Part shown: piece by piece, positions 3,958-41,550 of the stretch
How the letters are laid out: each line of letters begins with the position of its first letter
Position numbering within the stretch: position 1 is the stretch's first letter
Source of the DNA: Patescibacteria group bacterium
Lineage (GTDB): Bacteria > Patescibacteriota > Minisyncoccia > Phycocordibacterales > GCA-2747955
DNA: 64,000 bases
Reading direction: 5' to 3'
Assembly (NCBI GenBank): GCA_048538215.1
Contig: JBLYPV010000001.1
Coordinates: 333,499-397,498 of the forward strand
Position numbers and translations under genes: made by a program
The notes under the pieces: generated by a model
What the model was told of the DNA's origin: nothing
The model's input: only the letters and a program-made list of their open reading frames with translations
The model's database searches: none

Positions 3958-4317
3958 CTACTTTTTTTGTAGAAATTTCTTCCAATTCTTCGCTTGATTC
4001 AAGGCACTAACCACATTCTCTACTACAAAGGCATAGGCCTTCTTATTACCCAATTGTTCCAATTCATTGGCCACACGAGTGTATATCAACAACTTATTCA
4101 TCTCATTTTGTATAGCTGCTACATATTCTATTCTTTGGCTCTTGTCTCGACAATCACTAGCCTGATGTACCAACAACAAAGCATCTATAGGACATTCCAG
4201 CATCTTCTCTCCCAGCATATATTTATACTGTTTTGAAAATTTAGGAACTCTTTGATACAGATCCTTGAGTATAGACATGATGTCGTTATAAATAGGAAGT
4301 TCCGAGTGTGAAGCCAT
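3958..4317 (-). CDS. avd: DGR accessory variability determinant (Avd-like four-helix-bundle protein)
   Basis: About 119 aa between target and TR. 'ELPIYNDIMSILKDLYQRVPKFSKQY...IEYVAAIQNEMNKLL' fits the Avd / 23S-rRNA-IVS four-helix-bundle family. The track ORF runs to 4389. The start is chosen at the ATG with an upstream AAGG. Confidence 0.65.
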   Translation of the reverse strand: MASHSELPIYNDIMSILKDLYQRVPKFSKQYKYMLGEKMLECPIDALLLVHQASDCRDKSQRIEYVAAIQNEMNKLLIYTRVANELEQLGNKKAYAFVVENVVSALNQAKNWKKFLQKK

Positions 4318-5348: not shown

Positions 5349-5822
5349 CTACTGTATAGTTTTATGTCCAATTTTACAAATAGCATCGAAGTAAGCTTTA
5401 CTAACTGGAAAGACTGATAATCGATTGCCTTTCTGCACAAGCTTCATATCAGCAAAACGCTTATCTTCTTTAATTTCCTGAAGGGTCACTACTCGTGGAA
5501 ATTTTTCTTCAAATTCTATATCTACCATATACCATATAGGACTATCAGCCGTATGCTTGGGGTCTGGATGAGCTGAGTGAGGATCTTCGGCAGTAAAATC
5601 AGGGTATCCTTCCTTTACCACTATGGCAACCCCCACCACTCCTGTATCCTTAGCAGAATTAGAATGATAAAAGAGCACCCTATCACCTTTTTTGATTTCA
5701 TCACGCATCATATTACGCACTTGATAATTGCGTGTACCATCCCAATGCTCTACCCCGTCCCGCTTTAGATCATCAATGCTATATTCGCTCGGCTCTGATT
5801 TGAATAGCCAATAGTGTCTCAT
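5349..5822 (-). CDS. EVE (PUA-like) domain protein
   Basis: 'HYWLFKSEP...RVLFYHSN...GVVGVAIVVKEGYPD' matches the EVE domain. Confidence 0.75.
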   Translation of the reverse strand: MRHYWLFKSEPSEYSIDDLKRDGVEHWDGTRNYQVRNMMRDEIKKGDRVLFYHSNSAKDTGVVGVAIVVKEGYPDFTAEDPHSAHPDPKHTADSPIWYMVDIEFEEKFPRVVTLQEIKEDKRFADMKLVQKGNRLSVFPVSKAYFDAICKIGHKTIQ

Positions 5823-5896
5823 TCTCTCAGTATAAGCCATTTGCCCACTGATGTACAAATTATCGATGTGCCGGTGTGGACCAATTATCAACTAAA

Positions 5897-5944
5897 ACTA
5901 AAAGTAGTATTTATTTGCAGGTGCAAATAAATACTACTTTTAGT
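5897..5944. repeat. palindromic intergenic element, copy 1
   Basis: 'ctaaaagtagtatttatttgc-agg-tgcaaataaatactacttttag', directly 3' of the gyrB stop. Confidence 0.8.
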
Positions 5945-33756: not shown

Positions 33757-33846
33757 GGAGAGATGGCTGAGCGGCTTAAGGCGCACGCTTGGAAAGCGTG
33801 TGAGGGTTTACGCCCTCCGCGGGTTCGAATCCCGCTCTCTCCGCCA
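33757..33846 (+). tRNA. tRNA-Ser (anticodon GGA), long variable arm, CCA encoded
   Basis: Acceptor stem ggagaga/tctctcc, anticodon loop 'ttGGAaa', T-arm 'gggttcgaatccc', 90 nt. Confidence 0.9.
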
Positions 33847-34336
33847 TTTTACGATTTTGTCGGTTTTGGAAGTTTTACGCACCTGCGGTGCGATTGCCTC
33901 GCCCGCAGGCGAGGCTGAAGGGGCTGATTTTGCAACGATTTGCCACGCTCTGCGTGGCGAAAAAGAAATGTTTTGGTTTTGGATTTGGAAGTTCGAACCA
34001 ATCTTTTTTAGAAAATCCCGAATCCCTTCGGGATTTTCTTTGGAAGCGATAATTTTGGCTTGTTTGCTGTCTTTTATGAATTTCTCGGCGAGTTCGAAAG
34101 ATTTTGTTACACTTAGGTTGTAAAATTCGGATAAAAACGAGTTATGTGCAATTCAAAAAATATTTTTCTTGATGTAAAAAGGAGATAGGCTTTCTAGGAA
34201 TGGGAATAAATTTGATTTTTTCTTTATTTAAAGAGGGGGATAATATTGTGTTTTCTCCGCTCCGCTCCGAAAACGATTTATTTATAAATTGAAAAACATA
34301 ACAAAACTTATATAATACAAATAACTTTTACTTTTT

Positions 34337-35131
34337 ATGGGAAACAATATGACACTAATAGATACAAAATACTTCAAAGAGTATAGAGAAAAACTTGGTT
34401 TTACAAACCAAAATGGAGTTAAGGCATTTTTTGCTGCAAGAGATATAATTCCAACAGTAGATTATAATTATATAAATTTGCTAAATGACAGACTTCTTGA
34501 AATTGTCGCAAAAATAAATGATTTAGTTGTTGAAGATATAAAAGTAGAAGATTTAGATTTGTTTTGTGATGAAAACATTAAAACCGTTTTTGAAAAATTA
34601 AAAAATCACAACATCATTTCAAGACTAAATAATCAAGGAAGAAGACCAGAAGAAGTTTATTTTTCATGGATGCGTGGTTTTGTTATTTCATCATATTTTT
34701 TAAATGCTTTAAGTCAAGTTTTTGAAGTTGATATAGAAAATATTGATTTAATCGGAGATGACGATTTAGTAAATATTGAAACTTTCAAAAGAACACCAAA
34801 AGCAGATTTACAAATTAATTTAAAAAATGGTGAAAAAGTTAGAATTGAAGTTCAGTCAGGATTTCAAGGAATTAACGACATTAAACAGCATAAAGTTTTG
34901 GAAGCTAAAAAAATCAAAAGAGAAGAAAACATTTCTTCAATGGTAATTCATTTTGATTTATTTAATGGTCAAGTTGCTTTCGTAAAAATAGATAAAATTG
35001 ACGATGATAGTGTTAATTGGATAACAAGACAACAAATGGAAGGTCAAACTGTTTTTAATATAGACCAAAATTATTTTGCTTGGAAACTAACTGAAAATCC
35101 ACCTAAATATACAGATTTATCTTTTTCATAA
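34337..35131 (+). CDS. putative Type II restriction endonuclease (partner of the downstream C5-MTase)
   Basis: 264-aa ORF 10 bp upstream of a C5-MTase on the same strand, with the same low-GC codon usage. It contains a possible PD-(D/E)xK-like segment 'PKADLQINL...RIEVQSG'. No family confirmed. Confidence 0.4.
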   Translation: MGNNMTLIDTKYFKEYREKLGFTNQNGVKAFFAARDIIPTVDYNYINLLNDRLLEIVAKINDLVVEDIKVEDLDLFCDENIKTVFEKLKNHNIISRLNNQGRRPEEVYFSWMRGFVISSYFLNALSQVFEVDIENIDLIGDDDLVNIETFKRTPKADLQINLKNGEKVRIEVQSGFQGINDIKQHKVLEAKKIKREENISSMVIHFDLFNGQVAFVKIDKIDDDSVNWITRQQMEGQTVFNIDQNYFAWKLTENPPKYTDLSFS

Positions 35132-35140
35132 GGTATAATT

Positions 35141-36259
35141 ATGGCTAAAAAAATTAAAATTATAGACTTATTTGCAGGAGTTGGAGGATTAAGTTATGGC
35201 TTTGCTCATGACGATAATTTTGAAATTGTTGCAGCAAATGAAATTTTGCCGAATATGGCAAAAGCATACGAACTAAACCATCCGTCTGTAAAAGTATATT
35301 GCAAAGATATTAAAGAATTTGGAATTAAAGATTTAGAAAAAGATTTTGGAATTAAAAAAGGAGATGTTGATTTAATTGTTGGGGGTCCTCCTTGTCAAGC
35401 ATATTCAACAGTTGGCAAAAGACTGATAGATGATCCAAAAGGTAAATTGTTTCAAGAATATTACAGAATTCTTAAAGAATTAGACCCGAAAGTATTTTTA
35501 TTTGAAAATGTAAAAGGACTTTTATCGATGCAGGGTGGAGAATTGTTAAAAACAATTATTTCTTTGTTTGAATCATTAGGATATAAAGTTGTCTATAAGG
35601 TTTTAAATTCTGCTGATTATGGAGCACCACAAGTAAGAGAAAGAGTTATAATAATTGGAACAAAACTTAACTCTAAATTTAATTATCCTGAATCAACACA
35701 TTATAATCCAGAAGAAGAGCAAACTCTTTTGACACAAGAATTAAAACCATATTTAACTTTGGCAGAAGCAATAAGCGATCTTCCATTTATTAAAAGTAGT
35801 GAAGAAAGTTTTGAGTATTCTACTGAACCAGCAAATGAATTTCAAAAATTAATGAGAAAAAATGCTCCTGAAAAATTAATGGATCATAATGCTCCAAATA
35901 ATAATGAAAACTTAGTGAAGATTATGGAAAATCTGCCTGATGGCGGAACTCCAAAGGATTTACCAGAAGAATTAAGACCAAAAAGTGGTTTTGCAAATAC
36001 TTACTGTAGGCTTTGGTGGAATAGACCAAGTACAACAATTACAAGAAATTTAAGCACTCCTTCATCTTCAAGATGTATTCATCCGAAAGCACCAAGACCA
36101 CTAACGACAAGAGAAGGAGCAAGAATACAATGTTTTCCTGATAATTATGTTTTCTATGGTTCAAGAAGTGATAAAAATTTACAAATTGGAAATGCAGTAC
36201 CGACATTTTTATCAAGTGCTTTAAAAGATTCAATTAAGAAACATTTTTTAGAAGAATAA
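35141..36259 (+). CDS. dcm: DNA (cytosine-5)-methyltransferase
   Basis: Motif I 'DLFAGVGG', motif IV 'GGPPCQAYS', motif VI 'ENVKGL', and the C-terminal 'QIGNAVP'. Confidence 0.9.
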   Translation: MAKKIKIIDLFAGVGGLSYGFAHDDNFEIVAANEILPNMAKAYELNHPSVKVYCKDIKEFGIKDLEKDFGIKKGDVDLIVGGPPCQAYSTVGKRLIDDPKGKLFQEYYRILKELDPKVFLFENVKGLLSMQGGELLKTIISLFESLGYKVVYKVLNSADYGAPQVRERVIIIGTKLNSKFNYPESTHYNPEEEQTLLTQELKPYLTLAEAISDLPFIKSSEESFEYSTEPANEFQKLMRKNAPEKLMDHNAPNNNENLVKIMENLPDGGTPKDLPEELRPKSGFANTYCRLWWNRPSTTITRNLSTPSSSRCIHPKAPRPLTTREGARIQCFPDNYVFYGSRSDKNLQIGNAVPTFLSSALKDSIKKHFLEE

Positions 36260-36529
36260 GGAGTTTTGAAAAATGAAATACAATAATACAAAGCCCACCA
36301 AAAACGGAATAATATTGATAAATTTTTCAAAAATACGCAAGGCACATTGCACTCTCACTCCGCTATCGCTCCGTTCGGCTCGCCTAACACAGTATATGCG
36401 GTTCACTCGTTGCACTTCGCTCTCCCATATTTTGCTCCGTTTCACTCCGCAAAACATCGCATATACTGAAACGTTGTTCGCAATTGATAGGAAACAAAAA
36501 TTTATAAACAAAATAAAATATAAAATCTT

Positions 36530-39862: not shown

Positions 39863-40447
39863 CTAGAACTGTACCTCTACCGCATCGCGTACTTCAGAAT
39901 CCTTAGGAAGCTCAAAATACTCCCGCTCAGCAAAATCACCCAATGAGACAAATAGATTGAAGGGTATTGTCTGAGTGATAGTGTTGAAATCTCGCACCGT
40001 GCCATTGTAGAATCGGCGGGCAGCTTGAATTTTATTTTCGGTATCCTCAAGAGAATTTTGTAGATCAAGAAAATTTGCATCTGCTTTCAAATCAGGATAT
40101 GCCTCGGCTACTGCCATCAGCTTGCCAAGCATTCCTCCCAATCCTGCCTCCGCTCCCGCTAATGCTCCTATGGCTTCTGCTGATACGGTGGAAGCATCTA
40201 TCTCGATCGAGGATGCCTTGCTACGGGCTTCCATTACCTGCTGAAGGGTTTCTTGTTCGTGCTTGGCATAGCCTTTGACTGCTTCTACTAAATTTGGAAT
40301 AAGATCATATCGACGACGAAGCTGAACATCAATATCTGCCCACGCTTCTTCTACTCTATTACGTAGGGTAATAAGATGATTGTACATCAATAGTGCGACT
40401 CCTACGATAACGATAAATCCAAGAATAAGGGCTACTGCTGTATTCAT
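39863..40447 (-). CDS. lemA: LemA family protein
   Basis: N-terminal TM plus 'LRNRVEEAWADIDVQLRRRYDLIPNLVE'. Confidence 0.85.
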   Translation of the reverse strand: MNTAVALILGFIVIVGVALLMYNHLITLRNRVEEAWADIDVQLRRRYDLIPNLVEAVKGYAKHEQETLQQVMEARSKASSIEIDASTVSAEAIGALAGAEAGLGGMLGKLMAVAEAYPDLKADANFLDLQNSLEDTENKIQAARRFYNGTVRDFNTITQTIPFNLFVSLGDFAEREYFELPKDSEVRDAVEVQF

Positions 40448-40568
40448 ATTTATTTATTTTAATTATTAATTATTCTCTTATTGTATCGCTTGGATGGATA
40501 TTTTGCCAGCTACACAAAAAATTGCTACAATGCTTGACACCATTTAGATAGCTGGGTGGTGCGTATTG

Positions 40569-40778
40569 ATATATATGCCTGAGTGGTGCAGATTAAATGA
40601 TAGAGGTAGACACGCGTGTCGTAGTATAGGAAATCTTTCACTAAAAATCTGTATCACTGTGGTAGATAGATATATATGCCTGAGTGGTGCAGATTAAATG
40701 ATAGAGGTAGACACGCGTGTCGTAGTATAGGAAATCTTTCATTAAAAATCTGTATCACTGTGGTAGATAGATATATAT
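40569..40778 (+). repeat. two tandem 101-bp repeats, each beginning with a pseudo-copy of the tRNA-Leu 5' end
   Basis: Units start at about 40577 and 40678, with the real tRNA at 40779. The units differ by 1 nt. Each carries 'gcctgagtggtg' + an 11-nt insertion + 'gtagacacgc' + 60 nt of promoter-like sequence. Confidence 0.85.
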
Positions 40779-40860
40779 GCCTGAGTGGTGGAATTGGTAG
40801 ACACGCTAGCCTTAGGAGCTAGTGCCTTCGGGCGTGGAGGTTCGAGCCCTCTCTCAGGTA
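40779..40860 (+). tRNA. tRNA-Leu (anticodon TAG)
   Basis: Acceptor gcctgag/ctcaggt, anticodon stem ctagc/gctag with loop 'ctTAGga', long variable arm, T-loop 'ggttcgagcc'. CCA is not encoded. Confidence 0.85.
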
Positions 40861-41023
40861 CAAATTTGCTCAAAAAGAGTCCGTAGGGCTCTTTTTGATT
40901 TGCAATTTGTATCTGAGAGAGGGGGAGAAAAAAATCGCCGGTATACAAGAGCCGAGGAATCGAGGCTGCTTGTCGGCGATGACGGGGTCGAGACCGAACG
41001 AGGAATCGAGCGAAGGTGGTGAC

Positions 41024-41045
41024 CGAGCCCTCTCTCAGGTACAAA
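41024..41045 (+). repeat. 22-bp direct repeat of the tRNA-Leu 3' end (att-like)
   Basis: 'cgagccctctctcaggtacaaa' is identical to 40843-40864. The intervening 160 bp contain a terminator-like hairpin and an internal 'gaggaatcgag' repeat. Confidence 0.8.
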
Positions 41046-41109
41046 CAATCATCCTAGGGGTGATTTTTGTTTCCTGAGAAACAACTATATGTATACAGTA
41101 GGGTGAAGG

Positions 41110-41550
41110 CTATCTTGGCAAGATCAAGCACCAGAATGTTACATTCCCAACAGTACACCGATTCCCCATTGAGGTATCCTCTGTGGCAAGAATATCTGCG
41201 GCAAGAATGACATTGTCTCGAGTAGGAGCATAAATATATCGTACACCAGAAAATCTGATGTTTTCTATAGAAATATAATCATCTATTAGCTGATAGAGAC
41301 ATAATTGTCCCTTATACATACGAAATGGCTCACAAAATGGCATATTATTGACCACTGCTGGATAGCTATCATTATTAATATAGTAGACACGCAAAGCTTT
41401 AGCTAAAGTGTACATTTGTTGTTGTGCTTGGGCTTCATGTGCCTGTGCACTATACTGATCAATTCCCTTAATCCACACCCCTACCAAAACTATGATAATG
41501 AGCACAATGAGAAGACTTTCTCCTATTCGTCGTGTTTGTTGTTTGGGCAT
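41110..41550 (-). CDS. hypothetical N-terminally membrane-anchored protein (possible pseudopilin-like)
   Basis: 'RRIGESLLIVLIIIVLVGVW' TM anchor. Not a canonical GFxxxE prepilin. Confidence 0.45.
   Translation of the reverse strand: MPKQQTRRIGESLLIVLIIIVLVGVWIKGIDQYSAQAHEAQAQQQMYTLAKALRVYYINNDSYPAVVNNMPFCEPFRMYKGQLCLYQLIDDYISIENIRFSGVRYIYAPTRDNVILAADILATEDTSMGNRCTVGNVTFWCLILPR

Follow-up and report, generated by a model that had tools for sequence, protein, structure and literature searches.

Patescibacteria have genomes of well under 1 Mb with little spare DNA; the source contig of the sequence analyzed here is 0.62 Mb long. Small RNAs that come from tRNA precursors or are built on tRNA-like scaffolds include the 3′ external transcribed spacers of tRNA operons, the tRNA-miRNA units of MHV68, and the tRNA-like domain of tmRNA. 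Folded single strands are known as recombination sites, as in integron attC and the attP of CTX phage. Tyrosine integrases that target tRNA genes leave attL and attR, a direct repeat running from the T loop to beyond the end of the gene, and both occupied and empty sites are found among relatives. Integration is known to generate fragments of tRNA genes as a by-product (PMC9897764), and the established rearrangements include inverted triplications whose borders are short interrupted inverted repeats (PMC4689423). The preliminary description of a 64,000-nt stretch of Patescibacteria DNA (the window, meaning the whole stretch analyzed) read a tRNA-Leu locus within it as the footprint of an integration hotspot, with either att scars of an excised or decayed element or a miniature element.

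The tRNA-Leu (TAG) gene placed at 40779 by that description was recovered by both ARAGORN and Rfam, and all of the repeats reported around it proved to be real. This tRNA has partial self-copies on both sides. At slightly less than even odds, we read 40503–41075 as a single promoter-to-terminator tRNA-Leu (UAG) cassette of a Patescibacteria MAG. The neighboring open reading frames (ORFs) are LemA and a 146-aa protein, the latter conserved here in the relative L196; small ORFs overlap the tRNA region (e.g., 40742–41044, minus strand). The features of the locus, in window coordinates, are as follows.

40503–40531, plus strand: sigma-70-type promoter, TTGCCA-17 nt-TACAAT with an extended -10 TG, upstream of unit 1
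40550–40564, plus strand: possible vestige of a third unit, AGCTGGGTGGTGCG, with 3 mismatches to the first 12 nt of the tRNA
40577–40677, plus strand: 5′ unit 1, with tRNA nt 1–12, a D arm with an enlarged loop (CAGATTAAATGATAGAG), GTAGACACGC, and the palindrome GACACGCGTGTC
40678–40778, plus strand: 5′ unit 2, one position different from unit 1
40779–40861, plus strand: tRNA-Leu (UAG) gene without encoded CCA (ARAGORN; Rfam RF00005, 53.5 bits, 40779–40860)
40843–40864, plus strand: A1, the tRNA's own sequence from T-loop C56 to the discriminator plus 4 nt of trailer, source copy of the repeats
40870–40898, no strand assigned: T1, a 13-bp hairpin preceded by an A run and followed by a T run (symmetric, bidirectional terminator-like)
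40904–40923, plus strand: I, inverted copy of A1 with 1 mismatch, 5′ strand of the closing helix P0
40924–41023, plus strand: X, the module interior, with the P1 hairpin, the joiner GAC, and P2
40934–40980, plus strand: P1 hairpin with GGTATACAAGA..CTTGTC, a motif common to L023 and L008
40984–41024, plus strand: P2, GGGGTCGAG ... GGTGACC
41024–41045, plus strand: A2, exact 22-nt direct copy of A1, 3′ strand of P0
41047–41075, plus strand: T2, canonical intrinsic terminator with an 8-bp stem and 3-nt loop (41047–41065) and a T-rich tail
41066–41082, plus strand: possible vestige of a second inverted copy, TTTGTTTCCTGAGAAAC against TTTGTATCTGAGAGAGG, one indel needed (read by eye)

On the downstream side, the 22-nt direct repeat reported at the 3′ end (40843–40864 and 41024–41045) is exact, starts at C56 of the T loop, and passes the end of the tRNA. 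A third copy, I, had been overlooked; it is inverted, and the order is therefore direct-inverted-direct, namely A1(+), I(−), A2(+). The canonical terminator T2 behind A2 had likewise gone unnoticed. The 18-mer CCCTCTCTCAGGTACAAA has 3 matches in the window against 0.02 expected by chance. The terminator-like hairpin and internal repeat noted earlier in the intervening segment correspond to T1, which is the center of the A1/I palindrome (the MFE fold is a 20 + 13 bp hairpin), and to the 12-nt CGAGGAATCGAG, which occurs twice in X (40953 and 40999). The inverted copy I and the direct copy A2 are predicted to pair as an 18-bp helix closing a 140-nt module (40906–41045; dG −65.5, z −7.0).

Modules of the same layout, I-X-A after a tRNA and a hairpin, in tRNA orientation and with P0 formed from the 3′ segment of the tRNA, were detected behind tRNA-Ser and tRNA-Leu genes at at least 18 other loci, all gathered around the LemA gene and thus a narrow sample of tRNAs. 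Searches with nhmmer returned 18 modules at E < 1e-3 (E down to 1e-26), and the CM R1 gave 21 matches at E < 0.01, the best with 110 bits. At the locus orthologous to that of the window, R1 scored 91 bits in L196 and 69 bits in L001. The module in the window has an nhmmer E of 5e-4 and matches R1 weakly (12.3 bits, E 0.001 in 501 nt; missed under default filters), which counts against the explanation that we favor below. Of the R1 family features (ATTCGAA, the GGA/GA loop, and CGAGyCGGGGTC...GTGACC), it keeps GGGGTCGAG...GTGACC along with the P1 motif and has lost the ATTCGAA of I and the GGA/GA loop. We read the module as a degenerate member, and perhaps a decaying copy, of an undescribed family of folded elements that follow tRNA-Ser and tRNA-Leu genes in many Patescibacteria. 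Tandem second modules were present at L008, L020, and L067. In the 64 kb of the window, nhmmer found a single module. Modules within one genome are dissimilar to each other. Across genomes that share only 50–70% identity in LemA, the X joiners and loops show sequence conservation. In the window and the strong modules, no Rfam 15 family other than tRNA reached the gathering threshold. A permissive Rfam E-value returned only tRNA and chance hairpin or snoRNA-like matches, with a sub-threshold sX4 match over tRNA-Ser and T1. No published description of such tRNA-flanking elements was found in the literature searched.

The family fold is a three-way junction with strong covariation. RNAalifold on MAFFT module alignments gave P0 only. 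The interior helices were drawn manually and afterward tested on A4, for which MAFFT aligned the modules with no fitting to the structure. In A4, 79.8% of cells were paired, compared with 34–45% when the partners were slid, and double-sided changes numbered 96, compared with 24–33 under the same treatment. The covariation score was 0.543, a value reached by none of 500 shuffles, versus 0.12–0.18 with slid partners. Compensatory changes occur at fixed positions of the 3–4-bp helices P1a and P2a, between invariant nucleotides; the G(G/C)A/GA loop is invariant, and the U.U mismatch is kept in 9 of 12 members. For 17 of 18 modules, the better fold was that of the tRNA-sense strand, with a mean difference of −7.0 kcal/mol. 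Identity between A2 and A1 is bimodal (19/19 in 9 modules, 9–16/19 in 8), and in 6 of the 8 modules with a decayed A2, the complementarity of I is higher with A1, at the genuine tRNA end, than with A2.

Upstream of the tRNA, TRF identified a tandem repeat at 40568–40790 (101-bp period, 2.2 copies, 99% matches), in agreement with the two 99%-identical units described before. Unit 2 departs from unit 1 at a single position and is hence a recent tandem duplicate. The two 101-bp copies directly adjoin each other with no unique spacers, as already recognized when a CRISPR array was rejected. Each carries the first 12 nt of the tRNA, then 17 nt replacing a 6-nt D-loop segment, and then GGTAGACACGC; the 11-nt D-loop insertion of the preliminary description is thus a net gain (spacings 101 and 90). 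Unit 1 also repeats its own 5′ strand, imperfectly and in inverted orientation (AATCTGTATCACTGTGG), and is predicted to fold into a hairpin closed by these two strands (dG −26.1, z −2.5). The consensus structure of the units (RNAalifold on a MAFFT alignment) consists of the D stem alone, which again counts against our favored explanation. The vestige AGCTGGGTGGTGCG is non-significant by itself (44 matches at ≤3 mismatches against 29 expected) and is entered for its position only, 27 nt before unit 1.

Each unit had also been said to carry promoter-like sequence. The sole plus-strand promoter-like site within 40440–41120 is the overlooked one at 40503–40531, upstream of unit 1, and neither 101-bp unit contains such a site on that strand. 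Its columns TTG.C...AAAAATTGCTACAAT are invariant in L196 and L001, so that the promoter upstream of the units is unchanged across three genomes (alignment A3); the motif is also present in L197 and L198. The unit core GGTGCA..AGAGGTAGAC is kept in these same four relatives, and core and promoter position are conserved in five lineages. A metagenome search with the core pattern GGTGCAN{6,10}GATAGAGGTAGAC was rejected as a source of further members, since its 13 matches were all chance, with no tRNA nearby. Rather than promoter-bearing pseudo-genes, the units represent an old leader element that follows a conserved promoter. Because they lie between promoter and tRNA, we infer that they are transcribed within the 5′ leader of the pre-tRNA.

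These results bear on whether the flanks are neutral debris, produced by slippage and fold-back copying at the hairpins of the tRNA, in which structure would merely reflect mutational palindromes without function. The direct-inverted-direct order with its palindromic junctions and the recent 99%-identical unit duplicate agree with such an origin, as do the decay of A2 in half of the modules, the degenerate module of the window, and the absence of a consensus fold for the units. However, mutational palindromes would be symmetric, and the modules contain G.U pairs and favor folding of one strand. Conservation of the X joiners and loops across the genomes with 50–70% LemA identity (nhmmer 1e-26, CM 110 bits), the compensatory changes at fixed P1a and P2a positions, and the retention of unit core and promoter position in the five lineages likewise speak against it, and we consider it quite improbable.

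Comparison with relatives revealed both occupied and empty sites, and hence presence/absence polymorphism. The same architecture was found at the orthologous tRNA-Leu of L001, L196, L022, and L023, and orthologous tRNA-Leu (UAG) cassettes carry 0, 1, or 2 upstream units independently of the presence or absence of the module. At an occupied and an empty tRNA-Ser site (L014/L018), synteny breaks directly after the tRNA. When the terminators were compared, T1 of the window scored 27 of 46 against the terminator of the module-less relative L197, whereas T2 scored 14, and on this alignment T1 is orthologous to the terminator of that relative. Likeness between T2 and T1 was 21 in both L001 and L023, compared with 11 in the window and 12 in L196; by sequence, T2 appears to be a copy of T1 in L001 and L023. 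Between L022 and L023, T1 and P1 have been replaced and T2 is kept (38/46). X has also been replaced between the related genomes L041 and L078 (79.5% nucleotide identity). In both pairs, the turnover resembles that of exchangeable or mobile DNA more than that of a host RNA maintained by vertical descent, and it counts against the explanation favored below. T1, the units (GACACGCGTGTC), and the upstream modules of L065 and L078 all have palindromic junctions.

The claim of an integration hotspot with att scars therefore survives in part: the repeat that starts in the T loop and the occupied and empty sites are indeed like attL and attR. Unlike these, only 160 bp lie between the repeats, and they hold hairpins only, with no integrase, cargo, or other ORF; the segment also contains an inverted copy, a covarying interior, and a native T1. 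BLAST of 40450–41110 against phage sequences returned tRNA-Leu genes only, a scan of viral contigs with CGAGTCGGGGTCGAG placed 0 of 97 15-mer matches in module context, and the segment has no phage or viral match beyond the tRNA itself. Further observations speak against a decayed integrated element. The segment is read as part of a sequence- and structure-conserved family behind many tRNAs, with the inverted copy as part of its design, and the topology of an att scar predicts a native T2 and a foreign T1, the opposite of what the window shows (27 vs 14).

The same polymorphism may be explained by a miniature integrative element, the second option of the preliminary description, taken here as a non-autonomous A-T1-I-X segment of ~170 bp that inserts at the tRNA T loop, is mobilized in trans by a recombinase encoded elsewhere, and supplies a new 3′ end while displacing the old one (A2). 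Recombination would act on its conserved fold, possibly in the form of folded single-stranded DNA, as at attC or CTX attP. The module is like these sites in being a 120–150-nt imperfect palindrome with a variable center, in folding strand-specifically with structure more conserved than sequence, and in having a stem that reproduces the target duplex; it is unlike them in lacking R/L core motifs, an integron integrase, and cassette ORFs, and in having its repeat boundary at the inner end of the stem. Such an element would account for a direct repeat starting at T55|C56 in both Ser and Leu modules, for modules present or absent at orthologous sites, for the tandem arrays, for direct repeats that are either perfect or decayed, and for the replacement of X. 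It would also fit the co-variation of I with A1, as if the two traveled together, a copy in L032 without an intact tRNA beside it, and a foreign tRNA-Ser 3′ fragment between tRNA and repeat in L015. However, T1 of the window is orthologous to the empty-site terminator, and in L001 and L023 T2 appears to be a copy of their own T1. Excision between A1 and A2 would leave T2, not T1. Moreover, no integrase is adjacent, the left and right halves of X are never separated by an ORF in 0.93 Mb of loci, no module context was found in the viral contigs and phage records searched, and the modules are dissimilar within a genome, with a single copy in the window. We regard this element as unlikely, more so than not by a clear measure.

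X alone could instead be a non-autonomous single-strand transposon of the IS200/IS605 kind, inserted in the T loop of an existing pseudo-minihelix, with P1 and P2 as subterminal hairpins. The likeness to palindrome-associated IS200/IS605 derivatives is our presumption. It is suggested by the two end-proximal hairpins, conserved mismatches, strand-specific structure, and fixed T-loop insertion point, and by X-like pieces elsewhere in pseudo-tRNA copies, namely at the D loop of L022 and L023 and, in L065-Gly, in the interval from the D arm to the anticodon arm. In the loci examined, neither a transposase-carrying version nor solitary ends were found, the copies within a genome are dissimilar, and no Rfam or IS-associated family matched, which makes this origin very improbable. 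Searching the left and right halves of X separately for an ORF-carrying parent element found none. A MITE was rejected because the inverted arms copy the local tRNA, the 64-kb window holds one copy, and copies within a genome are dissimilar; an apparent 4-bp CGAA target-site duplication follows from the palindromic TTCGAA and is absent in Leu modules. Retrons, bridge RNAs, TnpB guides, tmRNA, and hammerheads were set aside in the absence of a reverse transcriptase, recombinase, or core motif.

We favor, with a probability of about 45%, an explanation in which the flanks of the tRNA grew locally, through partial direct and inverted copies made at its own hairpins, and are not integrase att scars. 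The orthology of T1 and the likeness of T2 to T1 in two relatives favor local direct-inverted-direct duplication over att scars; the palindromic junctions and the closer complementarity of I to A1 also count for it. The bimodal identity of A2 to A1 counts against our explanation. We infer that the arm copies arose by fold-back or template-switch copying (inverted triplication) at the terminator and T arm, giving the downstream order of a native T1, then the 140-nt module (the I and A2 pair around a two-hairpin interior), then T2. The upstream flank would comprise two copies of the lineage-conserved leader element between conserved promoter and tRNA, each combining the tRNA 5′ strand with an enlarged-loop D arm and closed into a hairpin by an inverted copy. 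In each flank, the direct copy would pair with an antisense copy, and we propose that the antisense copy does not unfold the tRNA because the direct copy keeps it paired.

The match to known inverted triplications (ODIRA, DUP-TRP/INV-DUP; PMC4689423) is partial. As in those rearrangements, there are three copies with the middle one inverted, T2 resembles T1 in two relatives, and the junctions lie at T1 and in the T arm. In a pure inverted triplication, the 7-nt T loop would connect I to A2, but the second junction in the window is filled by an X of ~100 nt, a conserved structured insert. The origin of X and its spread to different tRNA loci are not explained by inverted triplication. The copies also span tens of bases rather than kilobases, and they persist and co-evolve with the tRNA across deep lineages.

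Under this explanation of local growth, the interior X would be under selection as a single-stranded structure in tRNA-sense orientation, read most simply as RNA from read-through of the tRNA promoter. Against this, most transcripts may end at T1, ahead of the module. X has tandem G.A and U.U motifs that look like possible protein-binding sites. The module resembles the tRNA-derived RNAs in being a structured element after a tRNA, in the same orientation, with a closing helix like an acceptor/T-stem minihelix. It is unlike them in that a terminator-like hairpin stands between tRNA and module, there is no Rfam match, and the outer end of the helix often fails to reproduce the 1–72 base pair.

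More broadly, it is a tentative possibility, less probable than our favored explanation, that Patescibacteria carry widespread, undescribed elements formed from the tRNA's own arms, either a module RNA with a 5′ leader or a T-loop-anchored mobile mini-element. As RNAs, the module would be a 130–150-nt three-way junction clamped by an acceptor/T-arm minihelix, and the leader an acceptor strand with an enlarged D arm. Both would come from the pre-tRNA transcript and could serve, for example, in protein binding through the G.A/U.U motifs or in control of tRNA maturation.

These findings indicate that many Patescibacteria tRNA genes have self-derived structured flanks of 100–400 bp, with conservation reaching across deep lineages. 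A partial tRNA copy next to a tRNA gene in such genomes should not by itself be taken for the boundary of a prophage or island, and tRNA annotation and att-site predictors will be misled by such self-copy flanks. If the elements are RNAs, an uncultured phylum would have a new family of small RNAs scaffolded on tRNAs; as DNA elements, they would constitute a new class with the tRNA T loop as its target or point of growth.

The tRNALeu (UAG) gene of the window lies within a cassette of copied tRNA parts. The repeats, the tRNA and the hairpin of the preliminary description were all recovered with ARAGORN, Rfam, TRF and repeat searches, together with three features it had overlooked (marked "new"):

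40503-40531, + strand: promoter-like site TTGCCA-17-TACAAT with TG, the sole + strand candidate (new)
40568-40790: tandem repeat, period 101 bp, 2.2 copies, 99% matches (TRF)
40779-40861: tRNALeu (UAG) gene (ARAGORN and Rfam)
40843 and 41024 (starts): 22-nt direct repeat CGAGCCCTCTCTCAGGTACAAA, exact
40870-40898: 13-bp hairpin (T1)
40904-40923: inverted copy of the tRNA end, one mismatch (new)
41047-41065: canonical terminator (T2), directly after the second direct copy (new)

Because the inverted copy adds to the direct pair, an 18-mer of the tRNA end has three matches (+, -, +) versus 0.02 expected by chance; the 12-mer CGAGGAATCGAG is present two times downstream of tRNALeu. Hereafter, A1 denotes the 3′ segment of the tRNA itself, I the inverted copy, A2 the direct copy, X the interior between I and A2, and module the whole I-X-A2.

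Comparing this locus across relatives, as had been proposed, revealed both occupied and empty sites, with zero to two upstream units (the 101-bp partial tRNA copies) and with or without the 3′ module.

Cassette content of the tRNALeu locus in the window and in related loci collected around LemA (LemA identity; 5′ units; 3′ module)
Window: 100%; 2; yes
L196: 70%; 1; yes
L001: 70%; 2; yes
L022 / L023: 54-55%; 1 (large); yes
L197: 69%; 1; no
L198 / L199: 71%; 1; no
L200: 66%; 0; no
L201: 67%; 0; no
L002: 59%; 0; no

Wherever present, the cassette parts were recognisably the same between relatives. The promoter always lay 5′ of the units, and its columns did not vary among the window, L196 and L001 (alignment A3). 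In L001, a 99-base N run (4125-4223; masked or a scaffold gap) right after the direct copy of the tRNALeu 3′ end hides the start of T2. L200 (4155-5000) has a plain tRNALeu without the module, followed by a pair of small paralogous ORFs of 84 and 79 aa that apparently encode membrane proteins and each precede a terminator.

The chromosomal neighbours in the window encode an M48 peptidase, LemA, a 146-aa protein, a TrhO-like rhodanese, TGT and RF2, and the closest species-level relatives are Paceibacterota MAGs with LemA identities of at most about 70%. tRNALeu (UAG) adjoins the LemA region in many related genomes, and in L196 a homologue of the 146-aa ORF (31% identity, E 2e-26) precedes the cassette, which places the window cassette at its customary position. 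Relative to LemA, the window has the whole cassette in inverted orientation (39863-41550 versus L196 2315-5539 and L001 3166-6582), and the DUF2207 gene found between cassette and LemA in relatives is absent. Elsewhere in the window, tRNASer (GGA) (33757-33846) has no repeat of its own 3′ end anywhere in the window. The region 3′ of it (33847-36300) contains three GC-rich hairpins and the motif GTTCGAAC, then an island of 28% GC, probably an acquired restriction-modification system, that encodes an unknown 264-aa protein (34337-35131) and a C5 cytosine DNA methylase (35141-36259). At another tRNASer (GGA), in L015 (8168-8377), a variable-arm-to-3′-end fragment of a different tRNASer, identical in sequence to the tRNA end of L003, lies between the gene and its direct repeat, the arrangement typically left when a foreign element integrates at this tRNA.

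We surveyed the window and 80 related loci with ARAGORN and searched the surroundings of all 62 tRNAs. About 20 had their last 15 nt repeated in direct orientation, mostly 135-193 nt downstream (91 and 365 nt for one tRNA each), with a second copy near 340 nt in two loci, and about 10 had their first 12 nt copied 100-290 nt upstream. The common downstream order was tRNA, symmetric hairpin T1, I (which starts with the acceptor 3′ strand, reaches into the T loop and ends ...GGGATTCGAA), X of 90-130 nt, A2 beginning at T-loop C56, and a second terminator T2; some loci carried two tandem modules. An HMM made from 14 modules recovered 18 at E < 1e-3, of which the window contributed a single one (40913-41036, E 5e-4), and a covariance model of the family (R1) gave 21 matches at E < 0.01 in 0.93 Mb (top 110 bits), including 91 bits in L196 and 69 bits in L001 at the window's own locus. 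Rfam searches of the window and the strong modules returned no family at threshold for the module, and the literature searched yielded no comparable elements; the family appears undescribed. One strong module (L032, 9981-10120, minus strand; 84 bits) had T1 but no intact tRNA gene upstream. A sub-threshold match to the proteobacterial sRNA sX4 in L020 (9309-9469; 48 bits versus a gathering score of 70) spanned tRNASer, T1 and the beginning of I, and probably reflects the tRNA part of the sX4 model.

On an alignment of twelve "type 1" modules made with MAFFT alone (A4), we propose a three-way junction:

P0: pairing of I with A2
Joiner: AAAG
P1a: GAC/GUC
Internal loop: G(G/C)A/GA
P1b: variable hairpin
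P2a: GGUC/GACC
P2b: variable hairpin with a CUUAG/CUUAG box, tip loop often GAGYRAAGCGAA

Standard pairs filled 79.8% of cells in the proposed structure versus 34-45% when partners were slid by 1-3 columns; cells with both sides changed numbered 96 versus 24-33, and the covariation score was 0.543 versus 0.12-0.18. In 500 shuffles, these values were never reached. The P1a pair 27-81 occurred as GC, AU or CG, and P2a as GGUC/GACC, GUCC/GGAC, GACC/GGUC or GAAC/GUUC; the G(G/C)A/GA loop was invariant, and a U.U mismatch was retained in 9 of 12 members. When both strands were folded, the tRNA-sense strand folded better in 17 of 18 modules (mean 7.0 kcal/mol), which is why the predicted folding points to a module acting as a sense-orientation single-stranded nucleic acid rather than as a double-stranded protein-binding site.

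The module of the window (40906-41045; dG -65.5, z -7.0) has a perfect 18-bp closing helix and an exact 22-nt A2. Against R1 it scored only 12.3 bits (E 0.001 in 501 nt), a match that default filters miss. It retains GGGGTCGAG...GGTGACC and the GGTATACAAGA...CTTGTC hairpin, common to L023 (Leu) and L008 (Ser-UGA), and has lost two parts, the GGA/GA loop and the ATTCGAA end of I. The window copy is a weak and divergent member of the family, recognised mainly by position and orthologues, and is possibly decaying.

On the 5′ side, each unit contains, in order, 12 nt copied from upstream of the tRNA, the first 12 nt of the tRNA itself, 17 nt versus 6 in the tRNA (net +11) and then GGTAGACACGC. Promoter-like sequence had been placed inside each unit; the only + strand site in fact lies outside them, 5′ of unit 1. 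A single base separates the two window units, which arose by recent tandem duplication. Each unit is predicted to form a hairpin (folding z-scores -1.9 to -5.3) by pairing of its tRNA-like 5′ strand with an imperfect inverted copy located at the 3′ end of that unit, so the direct-inverted-direct order recurs upstream, as unit 5′ strand, inverted copy of that strand and real tRNA 5′ strand. In all lineages, a short palindrome stands immediately 3′ of the D-arm copy (GACACGCGTGTC in the window, GACACAGTGTC in L001, GACATGTC in L197). The case for a conserved predicted fold is weak because the RNAalifold consensus is limited to the D stem. The core GCCnnnnTGGTGCA...AGAGGTAGAC, retained in five lineages, and the fixed place between promoter and tRNA suggest that the units are conserved as a leader element. 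In other lineages, upstream pseudo-copies extend to the anticodon loop (L023) or T stem and can hold X-like inserts (L065, L078). L065 (2700-5000) carries class I tRNAs Gly, Phe and Val within 2 kb, each with an upstream pseudo-copy; Phe and Val also have a downstream direct repeat of the 3′ end with a different X type, and the Gly and Val inserts are mutually homologous (..AATCTTCCGATG-hairpin-TCGCGAAGTTC.GGG) at different tRNA positions.

Under integrase topology, A1 and T1, next to the tRNA, would belong to the element, and the distal A2 and T2 would be native. The evidence favours the opposite: T1 of the window scored 27/46 against the terminator of L197, which lacks the module, versus 14 for T2, and T2 is a copy of T1 in L001 and L023 (score 21 each). 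An att scar, left by a decayed or excised element as originally suggested, does not explain this native T1, the inverted copy or the conserved, covarying, strand-specific structure. The other option raised then, a miniature (mobile or exchangeable) element at the tRNA, is a live rival. It fits some features better: an X that is unlike between L041 and L078 (genomes 79.5% identical), the replacement of T1 and P1 between L022 and L023 with T2 held at 38/46, an A2 that is perfect in 9 modules and decayed in 8, with I tracking A1, not A2, in 6 of those 8, and the L032 module without an intact tRNA alongside. No integrase, transposase-carrying parent or viral copy was found among neighbouring genes, phage and viral sequences or related loci. 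The L022/L023 module (5650-5920; genomes 87.7% identical) is a mosaic, with T2 and P2 conserved and T1, part of I and the P1 hairpin exchanged.

Every junction type is palindromic (T1, the unit palindrome, and CGAATCCC-GTA-GGATTCG in L078), and fold-back or template-switch copying yields palindromic junctions. An established class of rearrangement, the inverted triplication, has short interrupted inverted repeats at its boundaries (PMC4689423); here, the terminator and T-arm hairpins would be the switch points. Our preferred reading, to which we give a probability of roughly 0.45, is that inverted-triplication-type copying at the hairpins of the tRNA made the arm copies locally, that these would have been retained as self-contained hairpins inside the pre-tRNA transcription unit, and that the interior of the 3′ module may have come under selection as a structured RNA.
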